The notes beneath the pieces are model-generated. The model saw only the letters and a program-made list of their open reading frames with translations. It did no database searches and had not been told where the DNA came from. From assembly GCA_046563655.1 (NCBI GenBank), contig CM102284.1, positions 7,688,001 through 7,752,000 on the forward strand: 64,000 nucleotides of DNA, in the 5' to 3' direction. Positions 29,928-61,509 of the stretch are shown here, piece after piece; within the stretch, counting starts at the first letter, position 1; every line of letters begins with the position of its first letter. Both the position numbers and the translations under genes were made by a program. The stretch comes from Yuukianura sp. NJ FZ-2021. Its lineage: Eukaryota.

Positions 29928-32487
29928 GGGACTATTTCACCACTTTACATTTTTCACTTTTCAATAATCAATCCGCAGTTTGCAATTTTTGCAAATTGAG
30001 GATGAGGAGCGTTTCACCATAACAACAAGCTCCTCAAATTTCCTTCCGCAGTTTTCAACCTTTTTTTTTGAAAAGTGAGGAAGAAAAACTGAGCAAAATG
30101 AAGAGTGATGATGAGTGATGACTCTTCATTTACGTCTCGCAAATATGGATATTACACTACTGGAAATTGAAACGTTTGGTCCAGTCAAAACTTGGTGACC
30201 GTGCATGGGTCACCGTCGGTTAGTGAACGTCCATTAATAACTGTGAATTGGACGCTATGCATTGGCGACCGTCCGTTAGTGGCCGCCCATTATGATATCG
30301 GCCAACCAGTGACCGTTACCTCTTAAGGTGACCTTCGAAACTCTCCATTTGCTGCATGTCAGGAACAATTCCCGGATCCTTATTGACAGTCACTTATGCA
30401 CAGTGGTCGATTTTAAAAAAAACAGTTCAGGCGTTTTTTGAAACAAACTTTAATTTCAATGTTGCCGTTGACAACTCATTCGGTTCAAGGAATGCAACAC
30501 TACACAATGTACCCATTCTGCTTCTTTCAACATTTAGCAATTGGCTAACTTTAAAAAACAAAACTTAACTGACAACTTAACTTAACAAGGCTGACTGTTG
30601 ATCTTGACCTTGAATGTTGACCTTTGACTATTGACCTTTGAGTATTGACCTTGACGTTGACCGAACGATGACTCTTCCTCGAAAAACGGCTTGATTGACG
30701 ACCGACCAGAAACACGCAAAACACAAAGAACAGTTTGAGTTTTGAGATTTTTTGAAACTTTGGAATTGGCGTGTCCAAAGTGGTGACGCCAAATCTCACC
30801 ATAACATCACGTTATGAATGCGAAATCACAAATTCGGAAATTATGATTACTGCAACCAATAATGTAAAAAATAATTTAGCAATACTTTGAATAAGCCTTG
30901 TGCCACGACTAAGCATTTTCCGGGGATCTCCGCAACAAAATATTGAAGATCAAGGCTTCCAGAACGCGAATCACCATTGGGTTTGTCATTAGAGGGTGAG
31001 GCATTTTGAGGCAAAAAATCAATCGGTACCTCAATTTTTGGGTCAAAATGACACTGATACGTTAGTTTGTTTACAAAATTTATTTGATTCCCTGAGAACC
31101 AAATAATAAAAAAACAACCACTGTGTTATGGAGCTATACACTTATGCACGGGCAATTATGCACACACGAACACGGTGGTTTCCCGAGGGAGATGACCCCC
31201 GGGTCTGGGCAGGGGGTGGGTGTCAATTAGCACTATATTTGTAGAAAAATCACATTAATAAGTCAATTTGAATCGTTTATACAACATTTCATGACGAATC
31301 TGTCCAGTAATGGACGGCAACTCATAATAATCAAGCACTTTTCAATCTTTGAAGAAGCCCTCGACCTTCTTCAAAAAAAATTGAAAAGTGCAAAACTTTG
31401 CACACATTTTGTTGCCAAAGAAAAAGCAGTGAAACACTCTTCACGCTTTTTTAGTGAAAATTTCCTCAATTTTCACTTTGCAAAATCCATCCACTATGCA
31501 ACGTTGTTATGGTGAAACAGTCCACTCCTCAATTTTCTCGAAAACATGAAAATTGAGGAGAAAAAAGTGCAAAATGAAAAGTGGTGAAATACACCCCAGG
31601 GGTGTAATCCTCAGTTTGCAATTTTTGCAAAGTGAGGATGCAGAGCGTTTCACCATAACAACATACTCCTCAAATTCCCTTCCGCAGTTTTCATCCCTTT
31701 TTTTTGAAAAGTGAGGAGAAAAAAAGAGCAAAGTGAAGAGTGATGAATGATGATTCTTCATTTACGTTTCGTAGATGGACATTCCACTACTCAAAATCGA
31801 AACTTTAGGTTCAAACAGAACTTGGTGACCGTCCATTGGTCACGATCTGTCATTGAACGTCCATTAGTGACTGTCCATTGATGACTATGTATTGGCCAGA
31901 GTCCGTTAGTGATAATCCAACAGGATATCGGTCCGCAAGTGACCGTGAATTAGTGACTGGTTATTCCAGAGGTTGACCTTCGACACTCTCCATTCGCGCC
32001 ATGTCAGGAATCCCGCATCCTTATGGACACTTATGGACCTATACACTTATGGACAGACACTTACCAAATGACACTTACCGACTGATCCTTGTCATCCGTG
32101 TCACTTGAGTAGAGTCACCCATGACTCCAACTTAACTCCATTTTAATCATTAATTAAAACATGTCATGCCCAAAATGTCAGGTAATCGATGGCAACTCTA
32201 AAAAATCATACACTTTTCAATCTTTGAAGAAGCCCGCGACCTTCTTCAAAAAAAATTGAAAAGTGCAAAACTCTGCACACCTTTCGTTGCCAAAGGAAAA
32301 GCGGTGAAACACTCTTCACGCTTTTTTAGTGAAAAATTCCTCAATTTTCACTTTGCAAAATCAATCCCCAATTTGCAATTTTCACTCTGCAACGTTGTTA
32401 TGGTGAAACACTCCACTCCTCAATTTACTCGAAAAAATGAAAATTGAGGAGAAAAAAGTGCAAAATGAAAAGTGGTGAAATACACCC
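29928..32487 (+). mobile_element. Head-to-tail dimer of PIF/Harbinger-like MITEs (29928-31596 and 31600-32487)
   Basis: TIR GGGTGTATTTCACCACTTTTCATTTTGCAC. Outer flanks CTG/CTG (29925-27, 32488-90) and CAG at the junction (31597-99), i.e. CWG target. The internal sequences are direct repeats of each other. Confidence 0.75.
30399..31125. mobile_element. Non-autonomous Transib-like element nested in the first MITE
   Basis: Ends CACAGTGGT.G.TTTT / ACCACTGTG. Exact 5-bp TSD TTATG (30394-98, 31126-30). Absent from the second MITE copy. Confidence 0.75.
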
Positions 32488-33944
32488 CTGGACTCAGTAT
32501 CGGATGACGATCCATTTCCCAAATCGATAATTATACCATCTTGATTTGTTCTTATAAAGGTATTTGCTAAGTTTTCCGTTTCCATGGTTAGGTTTTCTAA
32601 TTCAATGACATGCCTTTATAATATAGCCTAATAAATTCTTTCCCGAGTCCCAAGAATCCATCTTCCGAACCAATATTCAGCAAAATTACGCGCTTTCCTG
32701 CTCCTGCTCTATCGGTCACATTCAGATAGTCTATGGGAATATCCGAATGCTTCATGTGTCCCAACTTCACTTCGTTCTCAAATTCTATTTTCTCTTCTAG
32801 AAACGTTAGCACTGTACTTTGAATCATCTCCTTCGATTGCCAGGAAAAAGATTTCCCTTTACCCATTATTTATGGAAGTAACAATTAATTAACGAAAGAG
32901 AAATCACGTTAAACATAAGATAAAATGAAAATAAGGAATTAGGGGTTCTCACGGTCCAAAAAAGAATCCGATTCTTTTTCGAAAAGGATCTTTTTTTCTC
33001 GGTTTATAATCCGCCTCCGTGAGTGGACCGTTTCTGCGAAAGATTATAATCAGTGGAATGTATTAGGAAATAATAGCTATAGTCAAGTAGAAGGGAATTT
33101 CCACTTTTCCAAGATGGCCGCCCCCCCCCCCCCGGGCGCCCGCTAGGCGCACGGGTAATGGGTATTGGAAATTGGGATAGGCCAAGTGCCCTATATAGAG
33201 GATCGTCACCCCTCCCCCTTTGGTCCCCTCCTAATTCACCAAGGCCACCCCCCCCCCATCCTCCTTCCGCCAGATAGTCTCACCTCAGTATTCTCACCTC
33301 CCCCTATTCCACTAAGCTCCCCCCCCCCCCTGCCTGGCTCCTCCTGCATACAAGTATGAGATTATTAACTCCATCGTTTACCCCAGATTTGGCCTGCCCC
33401 CCCCCCAGAATCTCAAGGTCGCGCCAATCCTTTAACCCCCCAAGGTCACGGCACCTGTAATAGGGAAATGAACTTTCACCAGGATCCCGACATTGACTTT
33501 ATCCACATCTAACCTCGAGGTCACACGATTCCCTACACCCCATTCTCAAGGTCACGTTTGGGAGAAAAGCTTTCACCACACGACTTGAACTTGACCCATC
33601 TCAAGGTCACTTGCGCAAATGAAAAACATTAGCTTTACCAAATGACTTTTACTTACCCCGAGATCAAGGAAGCAATTTTGAGGGTGCGGTGTAAACTCAA
33701 ATGCAACCATTGGGCATGCGCCCGTTATAGTACAACACTATGCATGGTCGTAGCATATAAAAGTAAATGCAAATTCAAAATGTGGCACTTGTATGGTGGG
33801 AATAGGTGGCAGGTGCATTTCCCGTGTTCCCCTCGCTTCCATTACCCGTCCCTTTCTCCACAGACTGCTTTCTCTGACCAACAGACAATACCCCCACATT
33901 ACCACATGATTTACACATGTACACATTACACAATACCACATGAT

Positions 33945-34085
33945 TTTAAAAAAAAATCAATTTTTGAAAAAAAAAATCAATTTTTGAAAAAAAATCAATT
34001 TTTGAAAAAAAAATCAATTTCTAAAAAAATCAATTTTTGAAAAAAAAATCAATTTTTGAAAAAAAATCAATTTTTAAAAAAAAAA
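33945..34085 (+). repeat. A/T-tract tandem repeat (AAAAAAATCAATTTTTG-like, ~16-18 bp, ~8 units) in the left arm; mirror copy at ~38627-38785
   Basis: Directly visible. Unit number and length differ between the two arms. Confidence 0.85.
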
Positions 34086-34995
34086 GAATTTTTTCTACCA
34101 CTTCCATTAGCTGTCGTTTTGATAACTGGGAAAGCCGCGAGGACGGGAAAACTCAAATGGGTCAAAGGTCAAATATCCGAGTTACGCTACGCTCGGCAAG
34201 TACCACTACGCCGGGGGCGTGGCAAGCCTCAGTTTGGCAAGTCAGTCTTTAGCATTTCAATTGGGGGCGTGGCCAAAGGAAATGGTGCAATATGATTGGT
34301 CGACGACACTACATTGTACGCACGGCCATAAGACAAAGTTTCACGGTTTACATGTTGGCGGTTAGATTGACACTGAGGTCACACGTTAAGTTTTCGTGGT
34401 CTGCAATAAAGAATTGAGGCGATTACATTTTTTTTGTGAACTGGATTTGTATTGACTTAGAGCTTACCTCACAACAGGGGTGCTTGAATTTGGGTGAGAT
34501 CGTCTATACAAAGTAGCATCCCGCTTACAAGAATCCTATTACAGGAATATACTTTTTGCCGAATCAGAATGGCACCTTGTCAATTACTGAGGCCCCTCTG
34601 GGGTGAAACAATCCAATTTGAAATGACAAATGTGGAGCCCTTATATTTCATTCTGGCGGCATGTTCTGCCAAATCGTGAACGCTTAACGCTGCACTTTCC
34701 CTCAACTTGTGAAACCCATTGATGATAAGCGTAGAGAATTTAGTGGTGCATACTTTAATGCATTGTAAAAGCTGGTATCATTGCTTTGGCTGCCAGATTC
34801 GTACGCGGCATGAAAAAGTTGGCCTCTAACCGTCAAGAATTTACAATCTACAGCACATTAAACTTTTCTACGAATAAATGTACACAAACACAAATGTGAC
34901 ATGACATGGAAAATTGGTTTATTTTACAAATTGTGAAAAAAATTTTTTTACAAAAACAAGGCAAAGACTTAGCGATAGGTTATAGTAAAGTTCAC

Positions 34996-35562
34996 TTAGA
35001 AAAATATTTTTTTAGTAGAGGCAAGTCCGGTAATTCCATTTCCTGCAATTTGCAGCGTTTCATCTTCGATGCCGACGACAAGCACAACTAGATCTTTTGG
35101 AATCGCAGCGTCAAAGTTTATTTCCAGTCCAAGTTGTCCCATTCGTCCTGCAGTAAATCCATCTGCCCACAAGTCTTGAAGGTCAAATGCAAAGACTGCG
35201 TTGCCGTCGACAAATTGTTGATAGGTAATGTCGTTTCCACCACTTCCAATTAGTTTGCACAAGTTTTGATATGCCAGCATGTAGTTTTTGTCTTTGAAAA
35301 CCATTTCGTCAAACACAACAGGTCTGTTTTCAAACTTTAACACAATCCGGTTTACGCCATGAGGTTTAAAATTGAATGGTGAACTTTGAACTTTTCCGTC
35401 GTAAACGTCTCGTTCAATAAATGCGACGAAAACAGCTTTGGGAATCTTCGAAGACTGGTAAACTCTAGCCAATTCGATACAGTTCAGGCTGGCCGGAACG
35501 TATTCTACTTGCATGTGCGCCTGATCGTAATTCTGGACGGCCAATGAAAACAAAATCTGCAT
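34996..35562 (-). CDS. Inverted partial copy of the capsid gene (C-terminal 177 aa) with its own ATG and an 11-aa novel N-terminus
   Basis: 188-aa ORF identical to the capsid C-terminus from YDQAHMQ onward except P>A and R>K. Expression unknown. Confidence 0.5.
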   Translation of the reverse strand: MQILFSLAVQNYDQAHMQVEYVPASLNCIELARVYQSSKIPKAVFVAFIERDVYDGKVQSSPFNFKPHGVNRIVLKFENRPVVFDEMVFKDKNYMLAYQNLCKLIGSGGNDITYQQFVDGNAVFAFDLQDLWADGFTAGRMGQLGLEINFDAAIPKDLVVLVVGIEDETLQIAGNGITGLASTKKIFF

Positions 35563-35722
35563 GGGATATATTTTGTGAGCTCCTGCTAATGCACGTTACG
35601 ACGGCATTTAACAATTGGGTTGCCGATGGATTCGTGTCAATTTAAGACGTACTTTACCATTGAATAAAATCAGTAGTGAGTTGGACGTCGGTGAGTGCAC
35701 AGTACTGAGTTCCAGTGGAAGC

Positions 35723-36259
35723 ATGGCAGAGGATTCTCCAGTGGAAGATTGCTTGTCCGTCGGCACAACGGCAATGGAACCGGATAAAGTACTTCCAAAC
35801 CCAAGGAACAATAGAAAGCGGACGTTTTCAATAGTAGACGATGAGAAGTTTCATGGTGTTGAACAAAGTGACAACAAATTGACTCCCAAAATTTCAAGGA
35901 AAAGAACCTCTCGTTCATTTAAACCGCTTGGGACATCCACTATTGTTCCGAAAAAGCACTCTGATGCGTCGATTTCGGAATTATTTTCCAAAAGGCTGTC
36001 AATAACGCGCCCAAAATCAACACAAAAGTTGAAAAGAAGGCGCCACAATTCGCAATTGACTCAAAAATTACCAAAAAGTGCATCACGGAAGCAAACGACC
36101 ATATCGGATTCGAGCAAAAAGTCTCTCCCTAATTGTACTAAAATGAGCAAATGTCTGGACAATAGTGCACCTACGCTGAAATTTGGCAACAATACTGGAA
36201 GAAATGAGACCTTTTTGGAGAAATATCTCGAAAATTCACGTCAAAAGGCATTAAAATGA
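35723..36259 (+). CDS. Basic Lys/Arg/Ser-rich ORF of unknown function in the Maverick core
   Basis: Open frame 35615-36259 with first ATG at 35723 (178 aa). NLS-like RKR and KRRR clusters. Lies directly upstream of the capsid gene. Confidence 0.45.
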   Translation: MAEDSPVEDCLSVGTTAMEPDKVLPNPRNNRKRTFSIVDDEKFHGVEQSDNKLTPKISRKRTSRSFKPLGTSTIVPKKHSDASISELFSKRLSITRPKSTQKLKRRRHNSQLTQKLPKSASRKQTTISDSSKKSLPNCTKMSKCLDNSAPTLKFGNNTGRNETFLEKYLENSRQKALK

Positions 36260-36413
36260 AGACATTTGTGACCAAGTAGTCAGTCGTAATTTAAAGTTCA
36301 ACGGAGCAACACGCTGAGTTTTCTGTGCAATAACACAGCATTTTAACATTTAAACCCTTCAGTATTGAATTCGCACTCATCCAGGCAACATCTCCTTTAT
36401 TTTTCTCCCAAAT

Positions 36414-37712
36414 ATGGAAATTGACGTCCCAATAAACTCCAAGTTGGTCAGAAAAAGCCCCAAATTTAACCTTTTCTCGCGACCCGACACCGAGGTGTCC
36501 TATATTTTGGGCAACTACTTGAAAGTAAAACCGTTCGGACCGACAAAGGATGACGGACCAATTTATTTTTTTGTGCAACAAATGTCGTATTTGGACTTGT
36601 CGGATTCCTTTTTGAAATTTGTCGTCTCAATTAAGAAGAGTGATGGCACCAAACTTACCGACACTGACAAGATTGCACCAGAAAATTTATTTTTTCACGC
36701 ATTTATTGACGATTTTAAAGTCACAGTCAACAACTGCCAAGTAATCGCACAAGGCTTCAAGGCATATTCGTACGAGTCATGGCTGCTCACACAACTAATT
36801 AATGGAATTGGGTCCAAGTCGAGTACATTGTCGAAAGAAATTTACTACTCTGGAAATGTAGTGGACAACTATGATGACACTAACGTCAGCTACAAGACGC
36901 GATTAGACTTGGCAAAAAAGAGTCAGATGTTTGAAATGATTGGGCGACCGAATCTTGGAATTTTCACAACGCAAAGGTTGTTTCCACCAAAAACTGAATT
37001 CAATTTCGAAATAAAAAGGAGCGAACCGTCATTCTGTCTGAGAGGACCGGAGACTACTACTCAATACAAAATTGAAGTCGAATCGGCCGAGTTTTATGTT
37101 CGACAAGTCTACCCAAGCGAAAAAGTGATGACACAAATACGACAAGGGTTCGCAAAAAACAAAATTGCTTGCTACACTTATGATCAGGCGCACATGCAAG
37201 TAGAATACGTTCCGGCCAGCCTAAATTGTATCGAGTTGCCGAGAGTTTACCAGTCTTCAAAAATTCCTAAAGCTGTTTTCGTCGCATTTATTGAACGAGA
37301 CGTTTACGACGGAAGAGTTCAAAGTTCACCATTCAACTTTAAACCTCATGGCGTAAACCGGATTGTGTTAAAGTTTGAAAACAGACCTGTTGTGTTTGAC
37401 GAAATGGTTTTCAAAGACAAAAACTACATGCTGGCATATCAAAACTTGTGCAAACTAATTGGAAGTGGTGGAAACGACATTACCTATCAACAATTTGTCG
37501 ACGGCAACGCAGTCTTTGCATTTGACCTTCAAGACTTGTGGGCAGATGGATTTACTGCAGGACGAATGGGACAACTTGGACTGGAAATAAACTTTGACGC
37601 TGCGATTCCAAAAGATCTAGTTGTGCTTGTCGTCGGCATCGAAGATGAAACGCTGCAAATTGCAGGAAATGGAATTACCGGACTTGCCTCTACTAAAAAA
37701 ATATTTTTCTAA
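36414..37712 (+). CDS. Maverick/Polinton major capsid protein (PY, double jelly-roll)
   Basis: Intact 432-aa ORF collinear with the Polinton MCP pattern: YLDLSDSFLKFVVSIKKSDGT, PENLFFHAF, YSY..WL..L, EMIGR, FYVRQV.PS, IPK..FVAF, YDG..SPFNFKP, AY..L, GNDITY..F.DG.AVFAFDL, GQLGLEINF. Confidence 0.85.
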   Translation: MEIDVPINSKLVRKSPKFNLFSRPDTEVSYILGNYLKVKPFGPTKDDGPIYFFVQQMSYLDLSDSFLKFVVSIKKSDGTKLTDTDKIAPENLFFHAFIDDFKVTVNNCQVIAQGFKAYSYESWLLTQLINGIGSKSSTLSKEIYYSGNVVDNYDDTNVSYKTRLDLAKKSQMFEMIGRPNLGIFTTQRLFPPKTEFNFEIKRSEPSFCLRGPETTTQYKIEVESAEFYVRQVYPSEKVMTQIRQGFAKNKIACYTYDQAHMQVEYVPASLNCIELPRVYQSSKIPKAVFVAFIERDVYDGRVQSSPFNFKPHGVNRIVLKFENRPVVFDEMVFKDKNYMLAYQNLCKLIGSGGNDITYQQFVDGNAVFAFDLQDLWADGFTAGRMGQLGLEINFDAAIPKDLVVLVVGIEDETLQIAGNGITGLASTKKIFF

Positions 37713-40079
37713 GTCAACTTTACTATAACCTATCGCTAAGTCTATGCCTTGTTTTTGTAAAAAAAAAAATTTCACAATTTGTAAAATAAACCAATTTTCC
37801 ATGTCATGTCACATTTGTGTTTGTGTACATTTATTCGTAGAAAAGTTTAATGTGCTGTAGATTGTAAATTCTTGACGGTTAGAGGCCAACTTTTTCATGC
37901 CGCGTACGAATCTGGCAGCCAAAGCAATGATACCAGCTTTTACAATGCATTAAAGTATGCACCACTAAATTCTCTACGCTTATCATCAATGGGTTTCACA
38001 AGTTGAGGGAAAGTGCAGCGTTAAGCGTTCACGATTTGGCAGAACATGCCGCCAGAATGAAATATAAGGGCTCCACATTTGTCATTTCAAATTGGATTGT
38101 TTCACCCCAGAGGGGCCTCAGTAATTGACAAGGTGCCATTCTGATTCGGCAAAAAGTATATTCCTGTAATAGGATTCTTGTAAGCGGGATGCTACTTTGT
38201 ATAGACGATCTCACCCAAATTCAAGCACCCCTGTTGTGAGGTAAGCTCTAAGTCAATACAAATCCAGTTCACAAAAAAAATGTAATCGCCTCAATTCTTT
38301 ATTGCAGACCACGAAAACTTAACGTGTGACCTCAGTGTCAATCTAACCGCCAACATGTAAACCGTGAAACTTTGTCTTATGGCCGTGCGTACAATGTAGT
38401 GTCGTCGACCAATCATATTGCACCATTTCCTTTGGCCACGCCCCCAATTGAAATGCTAAAGACTGACTTGCCAAACTGAGGCTTGCCACGCCCCCCGGCG
38501 TAGTGGTACTTGCCGAGCGTAGCGTAACTCGGATATTTGACCTTTGACCCATTTGAGTTTTCCCGTCCTCGCGGCTTTCCCAGTTATCAAAACGACAGCT
38601 AATGGAAGTGGTGGAAAAAATTCTTTTTTTTTTAAAAAATTGATTTTTTTTCAAAAATTGATTTTTTTTCAAAAATTGATTTTTTTTTCAAAAATTGATT
38701 TTTTTTCAAAAATTGATTTTTTTTTCAAAAATTGATTTTTTTTCAAAAATTGATTTTTTTTTCAAAAATTGATTTTTTTAAAAAATCATGTGGTGTTGTG
38801 TAATGTGTACATGTGTAATCACGTGGTAATGTGGGGATATTGTCCGTTGGTCAGAGAAAGCAGTGTGTGGAGAAAGGGACGGGTAATGGAAGCGAGGGGA
38901 ACACGGGAAATGCACCTGCCACCTATTCCCACCATACAAGTGCCACATTTTGAATTTGCATTTACTTTTATATGCTACGACCATGCATAGTGTTGTACTA
39001 TAACGGGCGCATGCCCAATGGTTGCATTTGAGTTTACACCGCACCCTCAAAATTGCTTCCTTGATCTCGGGGTAAGTAAAAGTCATTTGGTAAAGCTAAT
39101 GTTTTTCATTTGCGCAAGTGACCTTGAGATGGGTCAAGTTCAAGTCGTGTGGTGAAAGCTTTTCTCCCAAACGTGACCTTGAGAATGGGGTGTAGGGAAT
39201 CGTGTGACCTCGAGGTTAGATGTGGATAAAGTCAATGTCGGGATCCTGGTGAAAGTTCATTTCCCTATTACAGGTGCCGTGACCTTGGGGGGTTAAAGGA
39301 TTGGCGCGACCTTGAGATTCTGGGGGGGGGCAGGCCAAATCTGGGGTAAACGATGGAGTTAATAATCTCATACTTGTATGCAGGAGGAGCCAGGCAGGGG
39401 GGGGGGGGAGCTTAGTGGAATAGGGGGAGGTGAGAATACTGAGGTGAGACTATCTGGCGGAAGGAGGATGGGGGGGGGGTGGCCTTGGTGAATTAGGAGG
39501 GGACCAAAGGGGGAGGGGTGACGATCCTCTATATAGGGCACTTGGCCTATACTAATACCAATACCCATTACCCGTGCGCCTGGCGGGCGCCCGGGAGGGG
39601 GGGGGGGTGCCATTTTGAAAAAGTGGAAATTCCCTTCTACTTGACTATAGCTAATAATTACAATCAACCTTCACAACTTGTTTCTTTGTTGTAAGGACCT
39701 TCACAAACCAACTCACCTTGTGCTTCTTTTCCTTGTTCTCTTCCTTGTCCTACTTAGTATAAAAGCCACACTGTCACTCTCATTCTGGTTCTCAGTTTCT
39801 TATGTGTACTTGCCACTCAGCCACTTGAATAAATCTTATTCAGCATACACAACATTTTGGCGACGAGAGTAAAGAAAAAAAAACTATCAATTTTCCATTC
39901 TGGACCTGGACGCTAGCGAGTTCCTAACCGCATCTTACTATCTTTTTGATACTTGGGCAGAGTTTTTCCAAGGACAAATTAGTCGAGAAGAGCAGTTGAA
40001 TCGCATTTACGACACTTTCGCAACCATCATTGCTACCAACAGCCCATCACCGTCACGCCATTTGGCACCACCCACTGCC

Positions 40080-43000
40080 ATGTCAACAATAGGAACACTT
40101 CCTGCTTTTGACCATGGGAAAGATGACTTTTAAGATTGGGTGAATGTGTACAAATCCTTTTTGCTTGCAAATGGACTCGACTATAATTCAGCAACAGACC
40201 AGAAGAGATGCATTGGAATTTTCCTGTCCTCAATTGGAATTGGTACGTACAATCTGCTTACAAATTTACTTTCTCCAACACCGCCACTTGAGAAAAAAGT
40301 TGAAGATGTTGTCGCAACACTCAAGGCTCATTTCAAGCCAACGCCAAAAGCAATAGCCGAACGTTTTAAATTCTCTACTCGCAAACAGCAAACTGGAGAA
40401 TCCGCAACCACTTTTTTGGCTGAATTGCGGAAGCAAGCGGTTCATTGTAAATTTGAAACTACCCTGTCGGAGAGACTGCGGGATTAGTTTATTTTTGGCT
40501 TGTCAAGTGAAACGGCCCAACGTCGAATTTTCACTCGAGATGATACCCTTACGCTTGAAAACGCTTTGAAAATCGCTGTTTCTCAGGAAGTTGCCGAGGC
40601 CGGTACTTCTACAATTCGAGAATATAATTCAACCAGTGGGGTTAATTATGCCTCTGCCTCACGTCCTTTCCAACGTCCTACACCTCAGTACGGTCATAAC
40701 AATGGATCTGCATCCAAATTCGCACCAAATCCAAAAGGTGGGAGGAGCCAAGGGAGGAGTCAATGGAGGAGCCAGCCGTTGCGCAACCAATCAAAATCTT
40801 CATGTCCAAATTGTGGCTCGACGCAACACAAGAACCCTAAGGATTGTCCTCACAAAGACGCAAGCTGTTTTGCATGTGGGAAAAAAGGACATTTCCGCAA
40901 GTTCTGATTTCCGCAGAAAATCCACCCATTACGTAGAAGTCGATGATGATTCTGCCGTATCAAACGTCAATTCCATTTATCAAGGACCGGGTAACTTGTC
41001 AGAATTCAATATTCGAGTAGAAATCAATGGCTTCCCTCATAAGATGGAGTTCGACAGCGGGTGCAAAGAGAGTCTCCTCAGCGCTGATTTCTGGAGAAAT
41101 ACGCTAGGTGCTCCACAGCTTCGTAGAAGCAACGCAGTTTTTCGGACCTTTACTGCTCAACAATTTCGCCCCTTGGGGAAATTGGAAGTAACCCTGGTTT
41201 ACAAAGGTCAGTCCAAGAAGCATTCCTTTTCCGTAGTAAAAGGAATGCACTCTCTCTTCGGACGAGATTTAATCCGACTTTTCGGATTGGAGTAGACACT
41301 CGCGGAACTTTCCCAGTGTAACTATGTTCCTGCCAAGCAGAAGTTGACCTTAGAATCGCTTTTGGAAGAATACAAGAACGTATTCTCGCCGTCGTGCGTA
41401 CAAATCAAAGGAGTTAAGGCCAAAGTTATCCTCAAGGACGACGCTGTTCCGAAGTTTCTGAAAGCTCGCCCTATTCCATTTGCACTTGTTCCAAAGTAGA
41501 TGCCGAGTTGGATCTAATGGAGAGGTCTGGAGTCATTCACCGAATTGAACACTCCGATTGGGCCTCACCTCTCGTGGTAGTACCCAAACCAAATGGCAGA
41601 GTCCGGATCACTGGTGATTTCAAGCACACTGTCAATTCGCAGTTACACATCTCGCAGTATCCCCTACAGCGGGTTGACGAGCTACTCTCAACGGTCTCTG
41701 GAGGAAACACGTTTTCAAGACTGGACGGGCCGGACGCCTTCCATCAAATTGAACTTGACGAGGCAAGCAAGTCGTTTATGGTCATAAACACACACCGCGG
41801 ACTTTATCGGTACAAAGTTTTGCCCCAGGGTATCGCTTCCTCTCCAGCGATTTTCCAGGAGTTTATGGACAAGCTTCTGAAGGACATTCCCATGGCTGGA
41901 TCATTCATGGACGATTCCATCTGTACTGGTTTCACCGATGCCGGGCACTTGACGACCCTACAGAAGATCTTCCAGCGCATGCGAGAGTTCAACTACCGAC
42001 TTTCGAAATCCAAATGCCAATTTTTCCAAAAGTCGTGGGACTACATTGGATTTGTGATCACCAAGGATGGACTGAAGACGTCTCCGAACAAAGTAAAGGC
42101 GGTACAAGCCATCCAACGTCCGACAACAGTAACCGAAGTAAAATCCTTCCTAGGATTGGTAAATTTCTACGGGAAATTCATACCTACTTTGGCGGACAAA
42201 TGTGCTGTTCTGTATGAACTCACGAAGAAAGATGTCCCATTCAACTGGACCAAACAATGTCAAATGGGATTTGACAAAATCAAACAAGCACTCGCCTCCG
42301 CTCCAGTGCTTTGTCATCACTCTCCACGACTTCCAATCGGAATTAGATGTGACGCTTCTCCGAGAGGACTCGGAGTGATCCTGTTCCATCGCTTCCCAGA
42401 TAACTCTGAACGTCCAGTTGCCTTCGCGTCAAAGGTTCTTTCTTCAGCTGAGCAACGCTACTCACAGATTGAGAAAGAAGCCCTCGCTATTGTCTTTGGA
42501 GTTAAGAAATTCTTCCAATTTCTTTGTGGACGAGACTTTATTGTTGTCACGGATCACCAACCATTGCTTTCAATTTTGGGTCCGAGTTCACAAGTTTCAT
42601 CTTACACTGCAACTAGACTTCAGAAATGGAACCTTTTTCTGAGTCAGTTCAACTACTCCATACAATACCGCAGAACACTGGATCATGGTAACGCTGACGC
42701 TCTTTCACGTCATCCGGTTCACACCGATGGTGAAAACACTGAGGTCACAGAGGTCGAATTGGAGGTCAACCTTGTTGCATCTTCTACTCTGGATATTCTT
42801 CCCGTGACAGCCAGAGCAATCAAAACTGTAACTTCACGAGATAAGTTACTCTCCTCTGTTTATCGCTATGTTTCCAGCGGATGGCCTTCCAGCATGCCTA
42901 AGGTGGATTCACTTTACCCGTACTTCCTCAGACGCGAGGAACTGACAATTGTTCAAGACATTATCCTGTGGGGAATTCGAGTTATAATTCCAACTTCGCT

Positions 43001-44069
43001 CCAGAAAAAGATTTTGGACGAACTACACGAGTCTCACTTTGGAATAGTGAGAATGAAGTCGCTAGCAAGACAATACGTCTGGTGGCCTGGCATTGATGTC
43101 CAAATCGAAGAGTTGTGCAAACGCTGTGAACGCTGTGTTCAAAACCGAGCTAATCCACCCAGTTCGCCACTGCATCCATGGGAGTTTCCAGAACGTCCCT
43201 GGCAGCGTGTTCATGTGGATCTGGCTGGACCATTTTTGAACAAGATGTGGCTGATCATCACCGATGCTCATTCGAAATGGCCGGAGGTTTATAACATGAA
43301 CAACAATACCAAAAGCCTGGCAGTGATTTCGAAGATTCGAGAATCAATTTGCAGATTTGGAATAATGCAGCAGATCGTAAGTGACAATGGTCCACATTTT
43401 ACTTCGCAAGAATTCAAGAGTTTCTGCGAATCCAATGGCATTCGTCACACCACCAGCTCTGTTTATCACCCCCGTTCGAATGGTGAAGCTAAACGTTTCA
43501 TCCAAACGTTTAAGAAGGCACTCAAAGCCGCAGGGGAAGATAAAGATTTGGCACTTCAGAGATTTCTGTTTACCTACCGGGTAACACCGCATTCGACAAC
43601 CGGACAATCTCCAGCGGAATTGCTACAAGGAAAAAAGTTACGAACTTTACTGGACTTGGTTCGCCCTGACGTTCGAGAAAAAGTGGGCTACTCTCAGTTC
43701 AAACAAAAGACGAACTACGACAAGAAAACGAAAGTTCGAGAATTCCAGGTTGGACAACAGATCTGGGTCAAAACGTTTTCGAAAAACGCTCCGAAATGGT
43801 CATCCGGAACTATCCTTCGTCAGACGGGGCCAGTGACTTTCCAGATTGATGTCGATGGAGAACAGATGAAACGACATGCAGATCAAATCCTGGACGCTCC
43901 AAAAACGAAACCAGAAGTTTTCGATGACGATGACCAAGATAAAAAGTCGGATCAACTGGAACTGCCAGAGGTAGCTGCAGAAGCTCCAGTTACAGCAGAA
44001 GCTCCTGCTTCAGCAGAACCCAGATATCCACAACGGGCACGACCACCTCCTGGAACTTATAAGGTTTAG
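40080..44069 (+). pseudogene. Gypsy gag-pol: two zinc knuckles, protease (DSG), RT (FMDD), RNase H, integrase
   Basis: ATG 40080. Stops or frameshifts at ~40485, ~40905, ~41293 and ~41497. Integrase H-H-C-C, DLAGP and SDNG present, but the catalytic Glu reads SNGEAKR (E>K). Confidence 0.92.
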
Positions 44070-44711
44070 GTTAACAGGACACAACCTTTCTTCCGTATGC
44101 TTTTTGCATGAATGCAGTTTCTTTAAATGGAACCATGTTTCCGTACTTTCAATTTCTATGTAGTTTCCAAACTTAAAGAGGAAGGTAGTGTAATGTATTA
44201 GGAAATAATTACAATCAACCTTCACAACTTGTTTCTTTGTTGTAAGGACCTTCACAAACCAACTCACCTTGTGCTTCTTTTCCTTGTTCTCTTCCTTGTC
44301 CAACTTAGTATAAAAGCCACACTCTCACTCTCATTCTGGTTCTCAGTTTCTTATGTGTACTTGCCACTCAGCCACTTGAATAAATCTTATTCAGCATACA
44401 CAACAATCAGTTTCTTTGGAGCGGTGATAGGAATTTTCAAATAAGTAAATAACCTACACGTCACTAATTAAGTCCGGTTGTTTATTTGATTATGACTTAT
44501 AAAATTATGATTTGATTATGAACTTCTCACCTTGTAGGCTTCATACTTTGCAGCAAAGTAATCAGTCATCACTGTTTCAGTTTGATTTGTCCATTGGGAG
44601 TGGGACAACGATGGAGTGGCCACACTATCACTAAAGGGTTGGCAGACCCTTGGCTTGACAGTTAGTTAGATTAGATTAGTTAGTAACTAATTAAACTGGA
44701 TCTAAGAACTA

Positions 44712-50800: not shown

Positions 50801-51380
50801 TAAATTGGTTCCTTTACCCTCCATTTCGAGCCTTAGACGAGCATTTTTCCTAAAATTTTCCCCCTACCCGTTTGACCCACCAATTAGGCATAACAAATTT
50901 GCAAAATTTCAGCCCCTGAATTCGGTTTAATCTTTTCTCATGTTTTCAGAGTCCCTCCCCGCTTTTCCCCATAGTTTTGTTCTATTTTCAGAGATTGGAC
51001 TCCATTCGGCACCAATGTCAATATTTTTCAAAATTGACGTCAGGCCCACGCTACCCGCTTGTACCCCTTGGTTTTTTCGAGCCGGGACGGCTCTGGGCTC
51101 GGCGGCGGGGTCATGAGGGGTTAAAGCCTCTGCAACCCAACCCTAAGTCAACCAGATGTTCGTCTCCGTCTCCACTCGTCACAACTTCAAGTCAGTCGTC
51201 TCCCTCCCCTCTTCCAGTCAACATCTCATCTCCGTCATCTCTCATTTTACATTTCAATTAGTCAATTAACTTAAACTTAACTTTAACTAAACCTAAAATA
51301 AAAGGAGTATCAACTCCATTTCCCTAGCATCACATGAGTTGTTCCTGTCTTGTTTCTTGGGCTTACCCATTAGCCCGTCA
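47806..51380 (+). mobile_element. Non-autonomous (pol-less) LTR retroelement
   Basis: LTRs 47806-48067 and 51114-51380 (TGAGGGGTTA..CCCGTCA). 4-bp TSD GTAG (47802-05, 51381-84). PBS TGGTGGACGAG at 48070. G-rich tract before the 3' LTR. Confidence 0.88.
48926..50185 (+). pseudogene. ORF with an N-terminal CCHC zinc knuckle, Pro-rich linker and unknown C-terminal domain; one in-frame TAG
   Basis: ATG 48926, then RTPDGRPICNFCRFPGHI*RTC (TAG 49034-36), in frame with the 362-aa ORF 49097-50185. Confidence 0.65.
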
Positions 51381-53024
51381 GTAGGGTGAGAAAGTGGAAT
51401 GGAGTAAGGACCTGGAAGTCGTCTGGAGAGTCGGAGAGTGGAGTGAGCGGCCTGGAGTTGAGGTTGGCAGAGGTTCTGGCTAGCAGAGTAACGAACTCTT
51501 CAATGGAAGGGTGGTGACCTTGGGTGACCTTGGCAAGGTTCATCTTCATACTTTTCACGACTGCTTCCCAAATACCGCCGTGATGTGGTCCGTAGGGTGG
51601 AGAAAAGTGAAAGTTGATGCTTTCACCAACGCAGAAGAGGTTGACCTTGTGGAGGTGTTGTGGAGATGAGATGAGACGCTGTAGTTCGGCCATCTCGTTT
51701 TTGGCGCCAAGGAAGTTTCTGCCTCCATCGCAGAAAATGTCACTTGGTGCATTTCGGAGTGAAATGAAGCGTTGGAAGGCGGAGAGAAAGTCTGGAGTGC
51801 TCAGTCCTCCAGAAAATTCCAGATGAATGGCCTTGGTGGCCATACAAACAAAAACACACACATACGATTTGAGAATGCGCGGTTTCCTTCCAGTGGTTGC
51901 AGCGACTTCAAACGGACCTGCGTAGTCCGTTCCCACTTTCACGAAGGGAAAGTCAGTGGTTATACGAGCAGGAGGAAGTTGACCCATGAGTTGCAGACTT
52001 GGTGTTGGATTGGCCTTGAAGCACTGAATACAGCGGCGGAAGACCCATTTGCAGAGGTCATGACCCCGTTGGATCCAGAACTCGGTCCTGACGAGAGAAA
52101 GGAGCAACTTCGGTCCTGCGTGTAGGTGGTGTTGGTGAAAGTCGCGAACAATGGCCAAAACGAAAGCGTTGATTTGTTGTTGTTCCGTGTTGCTTGGGCG
52201 GGCGACGACGGAATTTTGGAAGTAAGATGGGGTGACGCATGTGGAGTGATGTGAGGTGACGTCATTTGGTGGATTTGATTTGGTGGCACTGGTGGAAGGC
52301 GTGGACTGAGTTTCCTTTGGTTTAGGATTGGAGTGACCTTGACTCTGGTGTGAGTCAGGCTTAGAGGACGTGGAGTCCTTGGAGTCGAACTTGTTGCAAT
52401 GTCTGCAGAAAGTTTTGTAAAGACAATCTGCAGTTGAATGTCCATGACGAAGGCACAAGTTGCACAATTTGCATTTGTGCACTAGTGACCATTTGTCATT
52501 GAGCGAAAGACCTTGAAATTCCGGGCAATGGAATAGGCGATGTTCTGCAGAGCACTTCGGACATTTAGTTGTTAGCGGTTGTTTGCCCTGGGTGGCGTTG
52601 ACATGGTGGGTAGCGTTGACATGATGCGTAGAGGATGTGGTGGGTTTGACCTTGGATTGTTTCGTGGGTTCGGAGAGAGCACTGGATCTGCGTTCTAGGA
52701 ATTCCAGGAATTCCGAAAGAACTGGGAGGTTATCGTCTTCTGAAAGCAGCCACTGCTTTCGTGTTTCTGCGTCTAACTTTGTTTGGACCCAGTAAACAAT
52801 GAAGACGTCCCATTGGTCCACGGCCAGTCCCATTTGCTTGAGAGAAATTGAAGTTTGATTGACAAGGTCAATGACTTTCCGTAAGCCGGAAGTGGAATCA
52901 GAGACTGTCTGGAGAGAGAAGAGCTTCTGGAGGTGGGAGAAAGCGATTTCTCGCTTTTTGTTGTATCTTTTTTCCACCAACGCCCAAGCCTCAGTGAAAC
53001 TTAGGTTGGTTGGCGGAAATGATG

Positions 53025-53808
53025 CTCGTCACAACTTCAAGTCAGTCGTCTCCCTCCCCTCTTCCAGTCAACATCTCATCTCCGTCATCTCTCATTTCAA
53101 ATTTCAATTAACTTAACCTTAACTTTAACTAAACCTAAAATAAAAGGAGTATCAACTCCATTTCCCTAGCATCACATCAGTTGTTCGTGGCATCTTGTTT
53201 CTTGGGCTTACCCATTAGCCCGTCAAGTGGTGGACGAGGTCGCATTCGAACAAAGGGACAGGAAGCAACTGCCAACGACCTCACCGCTGACCTACATTGC
53301 CGGATTCAAGCAGTAACCGTCGCCGTTCAGCGAATATCGGTAAAACAAACATCTGATTTTTGAAATGTAGGCATTGTAGCCAGAAATTCGCCTCGTACGA
53401 TTGCTGCCCCCCCCCCCCTCTATCCGTTTTATCCCGTTTTGCAGGTCAGAGGTCACGCCGGTGGCGTGGAGCTCAGTTGGTAAAGCATTTGAGCGCATTT
53501 TTTGTGTTAAGCGAGTTAGTTTTGGTGTATTATGGTGGTTTATTGAGTCCCTACGATCATAATTTCATTTGTCCTTGCCCCACCATCCCGTTTTCCCCAT
53601 TTTTAGGCGGTTTTGTGGCCAGTTTGACCTCAAATCATTGATTTTTAGCCACAAAAGAGGGAAAATTCAAGATGGTGGCTCGGACGCGTGGAAGGAAGGA
53701 CGCCGTCATGGACGCTCAGAGGTGGTGAGGAGGTTGAAGGAGTCTACCCCCTCCTTCGGAATACACGCTAGCTGCGGATCTCCCCTCTTCTTTCCCTCTT
53801 TTCCCCTT
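53025..53808 (+). mobile_element. Second, doubly truncated copy of the pol-less LTR element (partial LTR, PBS, leader)
   Basis: Near-identical to ~47867-48649. Cuts off BEL gag on the left and is cut by the satellite on the right. Confidence 0.88.
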
Positions 53809-56800
53809 CCGGCGCCTTCAAATGCCTCAAACCGGTTTGCTAATTAATGCGTTGAAAATAATTGCATCATAAACGTATTTTCCAGCATAGTCAGCCAGTA
53901 GCTGAAAGTTTAGCAAAAGACAAATGATTGTGAAGTAACATTGCGTTGACTTTCAATTTAAACAATCACAGACTTGCTGCTTCGCCTTCCCGGTTTTTGA
54001 CGTGGTAGTGTCTGCAAGAAGGAATTTGAGTTTGACGCAGCTCAGGTTATGTTGTTAGGATTACGAGAAGTTCTGCTTGTAAAATCTTGTTGCTAACGCC
54101 AAGCAAGCAGTGTGACTTTGTCGTGTCTTGCTAAGCTCAGCTTCCGGCACCTTCAAATGCCTCAAACCGGTTTGCAAATTAATGCGTTGAAAATAATTGC
54201 ATCGTAAACGTATTTTCCAGCATACTCAGCCAGTAGCTGAAAGTTTAGCAAAAGACAAATGATTGTGAAGTAACATTGCGTTGACTTTCAATTTAAACAA
54301 TCACAGACTAGCTGCTTCGCCTTGCCGCTTTTTGACGTGGTAGTGTCTGCAAGAAGGAATTTGAGTTTGACGCAGCTCAGGTTATGTTGTTAGGATTACG
54401 AGAAGTTCTGCTTGTAACATCTAATTGCTAACGCCAAGCAAGCAGTGTGACTTTGTCGTGTCTTGCTAAGCTCAGCTTCCGGCACCTTCAAATGCCTCAA
54501 ACCGGTTTGCTAATTAATGCGTTGAAAATAATTGCATCGTAAACGTATTTTCCAGCATACTCAGCCAGTAGCTGAAAGTTTAGCAAAAGACAAATGATTG
54601 TGAAGTAACATTGCGTTGACTTTCAATTTAAACAATCACAGACTAGCTGCTTCGCCTTGCCGCTTTTTGACGTGGTAGTGTCTGCAAGAAGGAATTTGAG
54701 TTTGACGCAGCTCAGGTTATGTTGTTAGGATTACGAGAAGTTCTGCTTGTAACATCTAATTGCTAACGCCAAGCAAGCAGTGTGACTTTGTCATGTCTTG
54801 CTAAACTCAGCTTCCGGCACCTTCAAATGCCTCAAACCGGTTTGCTAATTAATGCGTTGAAAATAATTGCATCATAAACGTATTTTCCAGCATAGTCAGC
54901 CAGTAGCTGAAAGTTTAGCAAAAGACAAATGATTGTGAAGTAACATTGCGTTGACTTTCAATTTAAACAATCACAGACTTGCTGCTTCGCCTTCCCGGTT
55001 TTTGACGTGGTAGTGTCTGCAAGAAGGAATTTGAGTTTGACGCAGCTCAGGTTATGTTGTTAGGATTACGAGAAGTTCTGCTTGTAAAATCTTGTTGCTA
55101 ACGCCAAGCAAGCAGTGTGACTTTGTCGTGTCTTGCTAAGCTCAGCTTCCGGCGCCTTCAAATGCCTCAAACCGGTTTGCTAATTAATGCGTTGAAAATA
55201 ATTGCATCATAAACGTATTTTCCAGCATAGTCAGCCAGTAGCTGAAAGTTTAGCAAAAGACAAATGATTGTGAAGTAACATTGCGTTGACTTTCAATTTA
55301 AACAATCACAGACTTGCTGCTTCGCCTTCCCGCTTTTTGACGTGGTAGTGTCTGCAAGAAGGAATTTGAGTTTGACGCAGCTCAGGTTATGTTGTTAGGA
55401 TTACGAGAAGTTCTGCTTGTAACATCTAATTGCTAACGCCAAGCAAGCAGTGTGACTTTGTCATGTCTTGCTAAACTCAGCTTCCGGCACCTTCAAATGC
55501 CTCAAACCGGTTTGCTAATTAATGCGTTGAAAATAATTGCATCATAAGCGTATTTTCCAGCATAGTCAGCCAGTAGCTGAAAGTTTAGCAAAAGACAAAT
55601 GATTGTGAAGTAACATTGCGTTGACTTTCAATTTAAACAATCACAGACTTGCTGCTTCGCCTTCCCGGTTTTTGACGTGGTAGTGTCTGCAAGAAGGAAT
55701 TTGAGTTTGACGCAGCTCAGGTTATGTTGTTAGGATTACGAGAAGTTCTGCTTGTAAAATCTTGTTGCTAACGCCAAGCAAGCAGTGTGACTTTGTCGTG
55801 TCTTGCTAAGCTCAGCTTCCGGCGCCTTCAAATGCCTCAAACCGGTTTGCTAATTAATGCGTTGAAAATAATTGCATCATAAACGTATTTTCCAGCATAG
55901 TCAGCCAGTAGCTGAAAGTTTAGCAAAAGACAAATGATTGTGAAGTAACATTGCGTTGACTTTCAATTTAAACAATCACAGACTTGCTGCTTCGCCTTCC
56001 CGGTTTTTGACGTGGTAGTGTCTGCAAGAAGGAATTTGAGTTTGACGCAGCTCAGGTTATGTTGTTAGGATTACGAGAAGTTCTGCTTGTAAAATCTTGT
56101 TGCTAACGCCAAGCAAGCAGTGTGACTTTGTCGTGTCTTGCTAAGCTCAGCTTCCGGCACCTTCAAATGCCTCAAACCGGTTTGCAAATTAATGCGTTGA
56201 AAATAATTGCATCGTAAACGTATTTTCCAGCATACTCAGCCAGTAGCTGAAAGTTTAGCAAAAGACAAATGATTGTGAAGTAACATTGCGTTGACTTTCA
56301 ATTTAAACAATCACAGACTAGCTGCTTCGCCTTGCCGCTTTTTGACGTGGTAGTGTCTGCAAGAAGGAATTTGAGTTTGACGCAGCTCAGGTTATGTTGT
56401 TAGGATTACGAGAAGTTCTGCTTGTAACATCTAATTGCTAACGCCAAGCAAGCAGTGTGACTTTGTCATGTCTTGCTAAACTCAGCTTCCGGCACCTTCA
56501 AATGCCTCAAACCGGTTTGCTAATTAATGCGTTGAAAATAATTGCATCATAAACGTATTTTCCAGCATAGTCAGCCAGTAGCTGAAAGTTTAGCAAAAGA
56601 CAAATGATTGTGAAGTAACATTGCGTTGACTTTCAATTTAAACAATCACAGACTTGCTGCTTCGCCTTCCCGGTTTTTGACGTGGTAGTGTCTGCAAGAA
56701 GGAATTTGAGTTTGACGCAGCTCAGGTTATGTTGTTAGGATTACGAGAAGTTCTGCTTGTAAAATCTTGTTGCTAACGCCAAGCAAGCAGTGTGACTTTG

Positions 56801-59800: not shown

Positions 59801-61509
59801 AGCAGTGTGACTTTGTCGTGTCTTGCTAAGCTCAGCTTCCGGCACCTTCAAATGCCTCAAACCGGTTTGCTAATTAATGCGTTGAAAATAATTGCATCGT
59901 AAACGTATTTTCCAGCATACTCAGCCAGTGGCTGAAAGTTTAGCAAAAGACAAATGATTGTGAAGTAACATTGCGTTGACTTTCAATTTAAACAATCACA
60001 GACTTGCTGCTTCGCCTTGCCGCTTTTTGACGTGGTAGTGTCTGCAAGAAGGAATTTGAGTTTGACGCAGCTCAGGTTATGTTGTTAGGATTACGAGAAG
60101 TTCTGCTTGTAAAATCTTGTTGCTAACGCCAAGCAAGCAGTGTGACTTTGTCGTGTCTTGCTAAGCTCAGCTTCCGGCGCCTTCAAATGCCTCAAACCGG
60201 TTTGCTAATTAATGCGTTGAAAATAATTGCATCGTAAACGTATTTTCCAGCATACTCAGCCAGTAGCTGAAAGTTTAGCAAAAGACAAATGATTGTGAAG
60301 TAACATTGCGTTGACTTTCAATTTAAACAATCACAGGCTTGCTGCTTCGCCTTGCCGCTTTTTGACGTGGTAGTGTCTGCAAGAAGGAATTTGAGTTTGA
60401 CGCAGCTCAGGTTATGTTGTTAGGATTACGAGAAGTTCTGCTTGTAAAATCTTGTTGCTAACGCCAAGCAAGCAGTGTGACTTTGTCATGTCTTGCTAAA
60501 CTCAGCTTCCGGCACCTTCAAATGCCTCAAACCGGTTTGCTAATTAATGCGTTGAAAATAATTGCATCATAAACGTATTTTCCAGCATAGTCAGCCAGTA
60601 GCTGAAAGTTTAGCAAAAGACAAATGATTGTGAAGTAACATTGCGTTGACTTTCAATTTAAACAATCACAGACTTGCTGCTTCGCCTTCCCGGTTTTTGA
60701 CGTGGTAGTGTCTGCAAGAAGGAATTTGAGTTTGACGCAGCTCAGGTTATGTTGTTAGGATTACGAGAAGTTCTGCTTGTAAAATCTTGTTGCTAACGAC
60801 AAGCAAGCAGTGTGACTTTGTCGTGTCTTGCTAAGCTCAGCTTCCGGCACCTTCAAATGCCTCAAACCGGTTTGCTAATTAATGCGTTGAAAATAATTGC
60901 ATCGTAAACGTATTTTCCAGCATACTCAGCCAGTAGCTGAAAGTTTAGCAAAAGACAAATGATTGTGAAGTAACATTGCGTTGACTTTCAATTTAAACAA
61001 TCAGAGACTAGCTGCTTCGCCTTGCCGCTTTTTGACGTGGTAGTGTATGCAAGAAGGAATTTGAGTTTGACGCAGCTCAGGTTATGTTGTTAGGATTACG
61101 AGAAGTTCTGCTTGTAACATCTAATTGCTAACGCCAAGCAAGCAGTGTGACTTTGTCATGTCTTGCTAAACTCAGCTTCCGGCACCTTCAAATGCCTCAA
61201 ACCGGTTTGCTAATTAATGCGTTGAAAATAATTGCCTCATAAACGTATCTTCCAGCATACTCAGCCAGTGGCTGAAAGTTTAGCAAAAGACAAATGATTG
61301 TGAAGTAACATTGCGTTGACTTTCAATTTAAACAATCACAGACTAGATGCTACGCTTTGCCGCTTTTTGACGTCGTAGTGTCTGCAAGTAGGAATATGAG
61401 TTTGATGCAGCTCAGGATATGTTGTTAGGATTACGAGAAGTTCTGCTTGTAAAATCTTGTTGCTAACGCCAAGCAAGCAGTGTGACTTTGTCGTGTCTTG
61501 CTAAGCTCA
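53806..61509. repeat. Satellite array, 335-bp monomer, 23 copies
   Basis: The unit start CTTCCGGCRCCTTCAAATG recurs at 53806, 54141, 54476 ... 61176 (exact 335 period). The last copy is the most degenerate. Confidence 0.97.

Follow-up and report, generated by a model that had tools for sequence, protein, structure and literature searches.

An enzyme-less Maverick/Polinton derivative that retains a capsid gene beside long inverted arms, with a probable copy-back origin

How does a DNA element that carries a viral capsid gene but none of the enzymes of its family come to be inserted, with two correct ends, in an animal-type genome? The question is raised by a 6,578-bp insertion at positions 33075–39652 of a 64,000-nt stretch of Yuukianura sp. 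NJ FZ-2021 (GCA_046563655.1, contig CM102284.1, 7,688,001 to 7,752,000, forward strand), which is called the window here and whose numbering is used throughout. We regard the element as probably a non-autonomous Maverick/Polinton (adintovirus-like) derivative that arose by copy-back and was integrated in trans into the 5′ long terminal repeat (LTR) of a young Gypsy retrotransposon. There is good support for the capsid, for an origin from Mavericks, for the lack of enzymes and for a recent integration in trans; what we infer is a copy-back origin, a helper acting in trans and whatever activity the capsid gene may now have.

The inserted element and its target site

The insertion point lies 21 nt into the 5′ LTR of the Gypsy element, which is split in two, and the inserted DNA is bounded by a perfect target-site duplication (TSD).

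33075–39652, plus strand: whole inserted element, 6,578 bp, left tip AGCTATAG, right tip CTATAGCT
33069–33074, no strand: left TSD copy AATAAT, perfect 6 bp
39653–39658, no strand: right TSD copy AATAAT, perfect 6 bp
33054–44405, plus strand: host Gypsy, its 5′ LTR (33054–33074 and 39659–39854) split by the insertion
40570–44069, plus strand: Gypsy open reading frames (ORFs) with RVT_1, RNase H, Integrase_H2C2 and rve domains
44189–44405, plus strand: Gypsy 3′ LTR, reading uninterrupted through the insertion site

The element starts with AGCTATAGTCAAG at its 5′ end and closes with the exact reverse complement of AGCTATAGTCAAG at its 3′ end, and the insertion has AGCT tips of the AG...CT type. 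The corresponding unoccupied site was found in the Gypsy 3′ LTR, which reads ...GGAAATAAT and continues directly into TACAATC..., with a single AATAAT at 44204–44209 and no insert. The combination of an inverted repeat of 2.4 kb with a 6-bp duplication and the corresponding unoccupied site is far beyond what chance would give. Long terminal inverted repeats, AG...CT tips and a 6-bp duplication, the Maverick/Polinton pattern, were thus all present, and work by Kapitonov and Jurka from 2006 and by Pritham et al. from 2007 is said to give these three as hallmarks of Mavericks/Polintons. An earlier note on this DNA had described a 6,578-bp element with AG..CT ends, a perfect AATAAT duplication and an empty site in the 3′ LTR, and its coordinates, ends and duplication were all recovered unchanged.

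Because the second LTR is unoccupied, the insertion at 33075–39652 postdates the insertion of Gypsy. The two Gypsy LTRs, of 217 nt each, differ at 3 of 217 positions, 2 in the right 202-nt part and 1 in the left 15 nt, and ATCAG stands on both flanks of Gypsy. Both the count of LTR differences and the relative age of the element agree with what the earlier note had reported.

Sequencing reads were analyzed as short Logan contigs from four runs, three from one sample of organism A and one of organism B; depth in these contigs is not copy number, and the parts left uncovered in X3 and X4 are uninformative. An apparent empty-site joint from 33074 to 39667 in read contigs of X1, X3 and X4 was rejected, its sides being only 18–23 letters long and derived from variant LTR copies. 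Separately, read contigs of the same three runs jump from just left of 33054 straight to sequence resembling 44406–44440, to the right of the 3′ LTR, and therefore Gypsy is nested in another repeat, unoccupied copies of which exist. Just upstream of Gypsy, at 31280–31600 and 32155–32491, direct repeats of 218 and 109 nt were observed, with 89–95% identity and a spacing of about 875–891 nt.

The capsid gene, its relatives and the missing enzymes

The coding content of the element agrees with the ORF inventory of the earlier note, which had listed a 432-aa capsid-like ORF, a basic ORF and a half-capsid copy.

36414–37712, plus strand: intact gene for the predicted major capsid protein, 432 aa, its last 535 nt within the right inverted arm
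37786–37791, plus strand: AATAAA hexamer, a possible polyadenylation signal read from the sequence, 74 nt past the capsid stop codon
35723–36259, plus strand: basic ORF, 178 aa, pI 10.2, 21% K+R, 22% S+T
34996–35562, minus strand: half copy of the capsid gene, an ORF of 188 aa in which 12 new N-terminal residues precede capsid residues 256–432

Single-sequence searches of the capsid ORF against Pfam, PDB and PHROGs returned nothing useful, and a profile search of PDB gave only a weak match to adenovirus hexon (E 0.16). An HMMER search over 1.84 billion representatives returned 3,289 capsid relatives at E ≤ 1e-3 and 1,387 at E ≤ 1e-10, most of them about 430 aa long. The family is large and has no Pfam model, and 4 of 104 aligned members touch PF21738 (double jelly-roll, or DJR, like). 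The window's protein agrees with the family at 28 of the 32 columns that are at least 80% conserved. AlphaFold2, run on the 432-aa ORF with the 104-sequence alignment, produced a model with a pLDDT of 92.8 and a pTM of 0.90. Foldseek placed the Sputnik capsid (3j26_A, E 7e-16) at the top of the PDB matches for this model, with further matches to the grouper iridovirus, PBCV-1, EhV-201 and mavirus capsids and to vaccinia D13, while a fold search of BFVD placed a Cotesia bracovirus protein at the top (E 9.5e-23, 20% identity), with further matches to adomavirus LO7 and to giant-virus and virophage capsids. On this model the 432-aa ORF encodes a major capsid protein of the double jelly-roll type, which gives a predicted fold to what the earlier note had called capsid-like. 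It is assigned to the Maverick/Polinton family because its distant relatives sit in gene arrays of polymerase B, ATPase, integrase, capsid and protease, and the double jelly-roll major capsid protein that marks membership of the Polinton family is, on the same model, present.

Those gene arrays came from metagenomes. A metagenome scan with the single capsid protein found no relative, and a scan with a 7-sequence alignment found 49 loci with capsid relatives. The two longest, L019 (13.9 kb) and L018 (9.3 kb), carry capsid relatives with 25% identity to that of the window. In L019 the order is DNA_pol_B_2 (E 2e-18), a weak A32/IVa2-like ATPase, rve plus a chromodomain (E 8.5e-12), two ORFs, the capsid relative and a weak adenain-like ORF. 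L018 has the same order up to the capsid relative (DNA_pol_B_2 at E 5e-22, rve at E 1.3e-12), followed by an ORF without a Pfam match, and in L007 the capsid gene is followed by a Ulp1-type protease. In the relatives, the genes for the basic ORF and the capsid are located close to the right end. No terminal inverted repeats were found in the available stretches of L018, L019, L022 and L023. The viral contig collection gave neither a capsid relative nor a tip match, and the prokaryote genome collection gave no tip match and one distant capsid relative, L050. This relative, at 6565–7821 with 24% identity, comes from a contig of 268 kb that bears the label of a Chlamydiia metagenome-assembled genome; the contig may be a mis-binned eukaryote contig, and no inverted repeats were found in the 17.8 kb of it that were examined.

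The basic ORF of the window stands directly upstream of the capsid gene, as in seven related loci (L001, L007, L008, L012, L023, L027 and L038), where the basic ORF is 133–220 aa long with a pI of 10.2–11.9. It would thus be the positional counterpart of the Maverick basic protein. Among the differences listed between this ORF and a diverged read copy, 4 codons are synonymous and 10 are replacements.

Enzymes were looked for in the element with both profiles and translated searches. No Pfam family was found at E ≤ 0.01 in any of the 29 stop-to-stop ORFs of at least 55 aa in the left arm and core, the right arm being a repeat of the left. When all ORFs of at least 60 aa from the 49 related loci were compared with the element by tblastn, they matched only the capsid gene and its half copy, besides short weak matches, the best of which (E 3e-5) came from the L035 capsid ORF and lay beside the half copy, the others having E ≥ 7e-4. 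DNA_pol_B_2 was found neither by Pfam nor by tblastn with the polymerase-bearing ORFs of L018 and L019. An rve integrase was likewise not found in the element by either method, the sole nearby rve domain being that of Gypsy, nor were a penton, a packaging ATPase or a maturation protease, all of which relatives carry. The same ORF queries had no match at E ≤ 1e-4 in the rest of the 64-kb window, and an Rfam search of 32500–40300 had no match at E ≤ 0.1. The absence of enzyme remnants from both the element and the window marks it as a non-autonomous derivative and implies that its integration took place in trans; as read from its sequence, it is unable to replicate, integrate, package or mature on its own. 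This result upholds the earlier claim that the enzymes were lost and the capsid kept.

One metagenome contig has a similar gene content. L001, of 3,944 bp, encodes a capsid 45% identical to that of the window and contains inverted repeats at 50–427 and 3391–3747 (378 nt) with 84–90% identity and further repeat units up to the contig end. The space between the repeats is taken up by an AT-rich repeat zone, a basic ORF and a capsid ORF that is intact, and by nothing else. In 19 of 19 ORFs of at least 60 aa, no Pfam family scored above its curated cut-off. The tips of L001 are outside the contig. Its capsid is 62% identical to P0002, 55% to P0001 and 53% (over 129 aa) to L016, all above the 45% for the window. 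Over the N-terminal stretch, no relative is nearer to the window capsid than L016 (51% over 127 aa), which starts with the end of a penton-like ORF (3–206), followed by repeats, a basic ORF ending in LKGSAF and the capsid gene. The basic ORF of L001 ends in LKGSVFDL, and those of more distant relatives end in DIFS or DIFD. Because the L001 capsid is nearer to these others and L016 has a penton-like end, the window element and L001 look like separate reductions.

The inverted arms and the origin of the element

Most of the element is built from two copies of one sequence in opposite orientation. Summed, the arms make up 4,931 of 6,578 bp, the 75% that the earlier note had attributed to a single inverted repeat, and no other copy of any part of the element was found elsewhere in the 64-kb window.

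33075–35530, no strand: left inverted arm, 2,456 nt, its outermost 34 nt identical to the right tip
37178–39652, no strand: right inverted arm, 2,475 nt
35531–37177, plus strand: unique core between the arms, 1,647 bp
33944–34094, no strand: 18–19-bp A/T-rich tandem repeats of the left arm, with a mirror array at about 38616–38790 that is one 19-bp unit longer
33413–33610, plus strand: five YCRAGGTCRC motifs of the left arm, with a mirror array at 39118–39315 on the minus strand

The arms differ by 34 mismatches and 8 gap openings, one of the indels being a 19-bp repeat unit, and the mismatches are clustered. Eight are in 33109–33176, 9 around the 18–19-bp repeats (33863–34096), 6 in 34939–34993 and 11 in the innermost 157 bp (35371–35527, 7%), and the stretches 33177–33862, 34097–34938 and 34994–35370 are without mismatch. 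A 217-nt read-derived contig from run X2 matched the left-arm version exactly over 10 arm-distinguishing sites. The YCRAGGTCRC motif has 16 matches in the window against 0.52 expected, 10 of the 16 being inside the two arms, where the five per arm share a common orientation relative to the tip and lie about 340–540 nt from it. We take its core, TCAAGGTCA, to resemble an extended nuclear-receptor half-site.

The inner boundary of the right arm falls within the capsid gene, at the third base of codon 255. In the AlphaFold2 model an inter-domain helix (236–247) is followed by a strand (252–266), and the right arm starts at this strand, so that the half copy would correspond roughly to the second jelly roll. 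The ATG of the half copy is supplied by the unique core, and its frame is open. Between the half copy and the intact gene 10 codons differ, all changed codons of the 35371–35527 block, which is coding (capsid); 8 of the changes are synonymous and 2 are replacements, a proportion with a probability of about 1e-3 by a rough binomial estimate that assumes about 28% of random changes to be synonymous. Since selection for the complete protein cannot act on a truncated half gene, both versions of this block must derive from two capsid genes that diverged while functional. The pattern points to two related elements that recombined or between which the template was switched, and the mostly synonymous differences indicate that two or more related capsid genes, all under selection, came together in a single molecule.

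We propose the following origin. The element retains only the structural genes toward the right end of such elements, namely the basic ORF and the intact gene for the predicted double jelly-roll capsid. In place of the left part, which carries polymerase B, ATPase, integrase and penton in relatives, stands an inverted copy of the terminal 2.47 kb on the right, including the last 177 capsid codons. Most probably, a linear Maverick genome, replicating or broken, underwent copy-back or fold-back, and at the same time or later recombined with another functional capsid gene that had diverged by about 7%. The product would have been a 6.6-kb linear molecule with two correct AG...CT tips, and an rve-type integrase supplied in trans would then have inserted it into the young Gypsy 5′ LTR, giving rise to the 6-bp duplication. 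A layout of the right end inverted, 1.65 kb of unique sequence and the right end again is what copy-back or fold-back would be expected to yield on a linear genome. The features of a copy-back defective genome, one terminus duplicated in inverted form in place of the other together with the loss of internal genes, were found here, with arms that are mosaic. Two correct tips and a 6-bp duplication further imply that the rearrangement preceded this integration, on either a free or a previously integrated copy.

Several points weigh against this account. Copy-back on a single molecule predicts identical arms, and the 7% inner block and the 8 mismatches at 33109–33176 need an extra event or two templates. 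Neither a helper with identical tips nor a second copy with the same junction was found in the window, and the viral and prokaryote collections gave no match to the tips. Runs X1–X3 are possibly the window's own assembly data and hence offer no independent support, and no contig among the read contigs listed bridges 35530/35531. The basic ORF had no homologue in sequence searches and no significant match to the basic ORF of L001; given the replacement codons counted above, it may not be a functional gene.

Three other explanations of the structure fare worse. It is quite improbable that a full-length Maverick was inserted here and then reduced in place by deletion and inverted duplication, with no small element having moved. 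Both tips and the duplication would then have been inherited from the full-length insertion, and internal deletion is a frequent decay route of large elements; fragmented Maverick copies in one insect genome are described in PMC8504770. However, deletion alone cannot put an inverted half capsid gene beside the left arm, and the insertion is young, given the bracketing LTRs (3 of 217) and the long arm stretches without mismatch, so that an inner block with 7% mostly synonymous differences could not have arisen in place in that time. We also consider it very improbable that an unrelated cut-and-paste transposon with inverted repeats took up a Maverick capsid gene as cargo. No helper was identified, and DNA transposons are known to capture genes, as PMC6431247 states, but the arm is continuous from the 3′ end of the capsid gene to the tip. 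The order of the basic ORF and the capsid gene is, moreover, as in Mavericks. AG...CT tips, kilobase inverted repeats and a 6-bp duplication are, as stated above, the Maverick/Polinton pattern. Finally, long-read assembly is known to fail at long palindromes, and the missing bridge across 35530/35531 among the read contigs listed would fit an inverted arm that is merely a fold-back of the assembly. We hold this to be extremely improbable, because an artefact would give identical arms and would not join the tips to the correct LTR halves, whereas the arms differ at 34 sites and by 8 indels, including the 19-bp repeat unit, each outer tip meets the correct LTR half with the 6-bp duplication, and the contig from X2 is exact for the left-arm-specific version. 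The earlier note had raised the same alternative, which is not borne out.

A further reading goes beyond a single derivative, namely that the element belongs to a propagating satellite lineage that is enzyme-less, has its own capsid under selection, is replicated, packaged and integrated by a helper Maverick and has spread as a family. L001 has the same two-gene layout between inverted repeats and no Pfam family above the curated cut-off, the window capsid is intact with 28 of 32 conserved family positions kept, and most of the arm differences within the capsid stretch are synonymous. Copies of the core and capsid gene that have diverged to about 91–95% identity are also present in each of the four runs, under two organism labels, for example a 1,432-nt contig over 36540–37969 with 73 differences. 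Against this, the L001 capsid is closer to P0002, P0001 and L016, suggesting independent reductions rather than one old lineage, and the tips of L001 are outside its contig. The diverged read copies can be followed only to 35585, where their contigs depart from the window sequence, with loose letters that still resemble 35545–35570; and the retained genes are near the right end in relatives, where position alone could explain their retention. We therefore see such a lineage as possible, though doubtful. This also qualifies the reading of the earlier note, which had proposed a satellite or defective-interfering-like element mobilised in trans: the recent trans-integration of an enzyme-less element stands, and L001 lends partial support to a recurring kind of element. 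Slightly more tentative still is the idea that capsid-only Maverick derivatives are recurring satellites of endogenous animal DNA viruses, replicated, packaged and integrated by a helper, with a selected capsid and with exchange of capsid sequence with that helper by recombination, in which the copy-back structure would be a fossil of an extrachromosomal, protein-primed phase of Mavericks in an animal.

Elsewhere in the window, a tandem satellite array with a 335-bp period occupies 53806–61475 (23 copies, 95–100% identity to the reference copy). A 609-aa open frame at 10162–11991 on the plus strand contains three chitin-binding peritrophin-A (CBM_14) domains, in keeping with an animal and probably arthropod-like host. 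Another open frame, of 552 aa, at 51370–53028 on the minus strand, contains DUF1759 and Integrase_H2C2 and is probably a fragment of another LTR retrotransposon.

Comparison with known systems

The element, read as a copy-back Maverick derivative integrated in trans, shares with autonomous Mavericks/Polintons (adintovirus-like, 15–25 kb) the capsid family, the AG...CT tips, the long inverted repeats, the 6-bp duplication and the order of basic ORF and then capsid gene. It differs from them in its size of 6.6 kb, in having no polymerase B, integrase, ATPase, protease or penton, and in inverted repeats that make up 75% of its length and reach into the capsid gene. PMC5499653 defines Polintons as encoding a polymerase and an integrase. 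Having neither, the element is therefore a non-autonomous derivative and not a strict member of the Mavericks/Polintons. Non-autonomous deletion derivatives of Polintons are present in repeat libraries; they have the tips and inverted repeats of their family, lack enzymes and depend on a helper, as the element described here would. In the literature searched, supplementary files aside, we found no description of a capsid-only non-autonomous Maverick derivative, nor of a Maverick derivative built as a long inverted duplication of one end.

Defective genomes with copy-back or inverted-duplication structures are known from linear, protein-primed replicons, such as the incomplete particles of adenovirus. 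In those genomes, too, one end is duplicated and stands inverted where the other would be, essential genes are missing, and the two termini still function. The element differs in being integrated in a chromosome with a target duplication and in having arms that are mosaic and not identical. In coding content a parallel is offered by satellite viruses with a capsid protein as their sole product, such as satellite tobacco necrosis virus; these are small RNA viruses whose single jelly-roll capsid needs no penton, packaging ATPase or protease. In both cases the coding content is essentially a capsid, and replication functions would be drawn from a helper; the satellite viruses have RNA and a single jelly-roll capsid, whereas the element is DNA with a gene for a predicted double jelly-roll capsid. 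Transpovirons, in turn, are described as linear plasmids of giant viruses and are not known to have a double jelly-roll capsid gene. They are linear DNAs of about 7 kb with long terminal inverted repeats, according to PMC3671162. The element is like them in size, in its long inverted termini and in its dependence on another virus, and unlike them in being a chromosomal insertion in an animal-type genome and in having the double jelly-roll capsid gene. By analogy, then, the element resembles a copy-back defective genome in anatomy and a satellite virus in coding content.

Mavericks/Polintons are regarded as both viruses and transposons, with little evidence so far that they replicate as free DNA in animals. 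An element with two correct tips, a fresh duplication, no enzymes and a copied-back end would be hard to produce unless a linear DNA intermediate and a trans-acting helper were involved, and because such a structure is hard to make otherwise, it bears on both the free linear phase and the helper. If copies of the same structure exist, the element would be the first satellite-like parasite of Mavericks that keeps a capsid gene, and it would represent the reverse of the usual course of decay, in which structural genes are the first to go.

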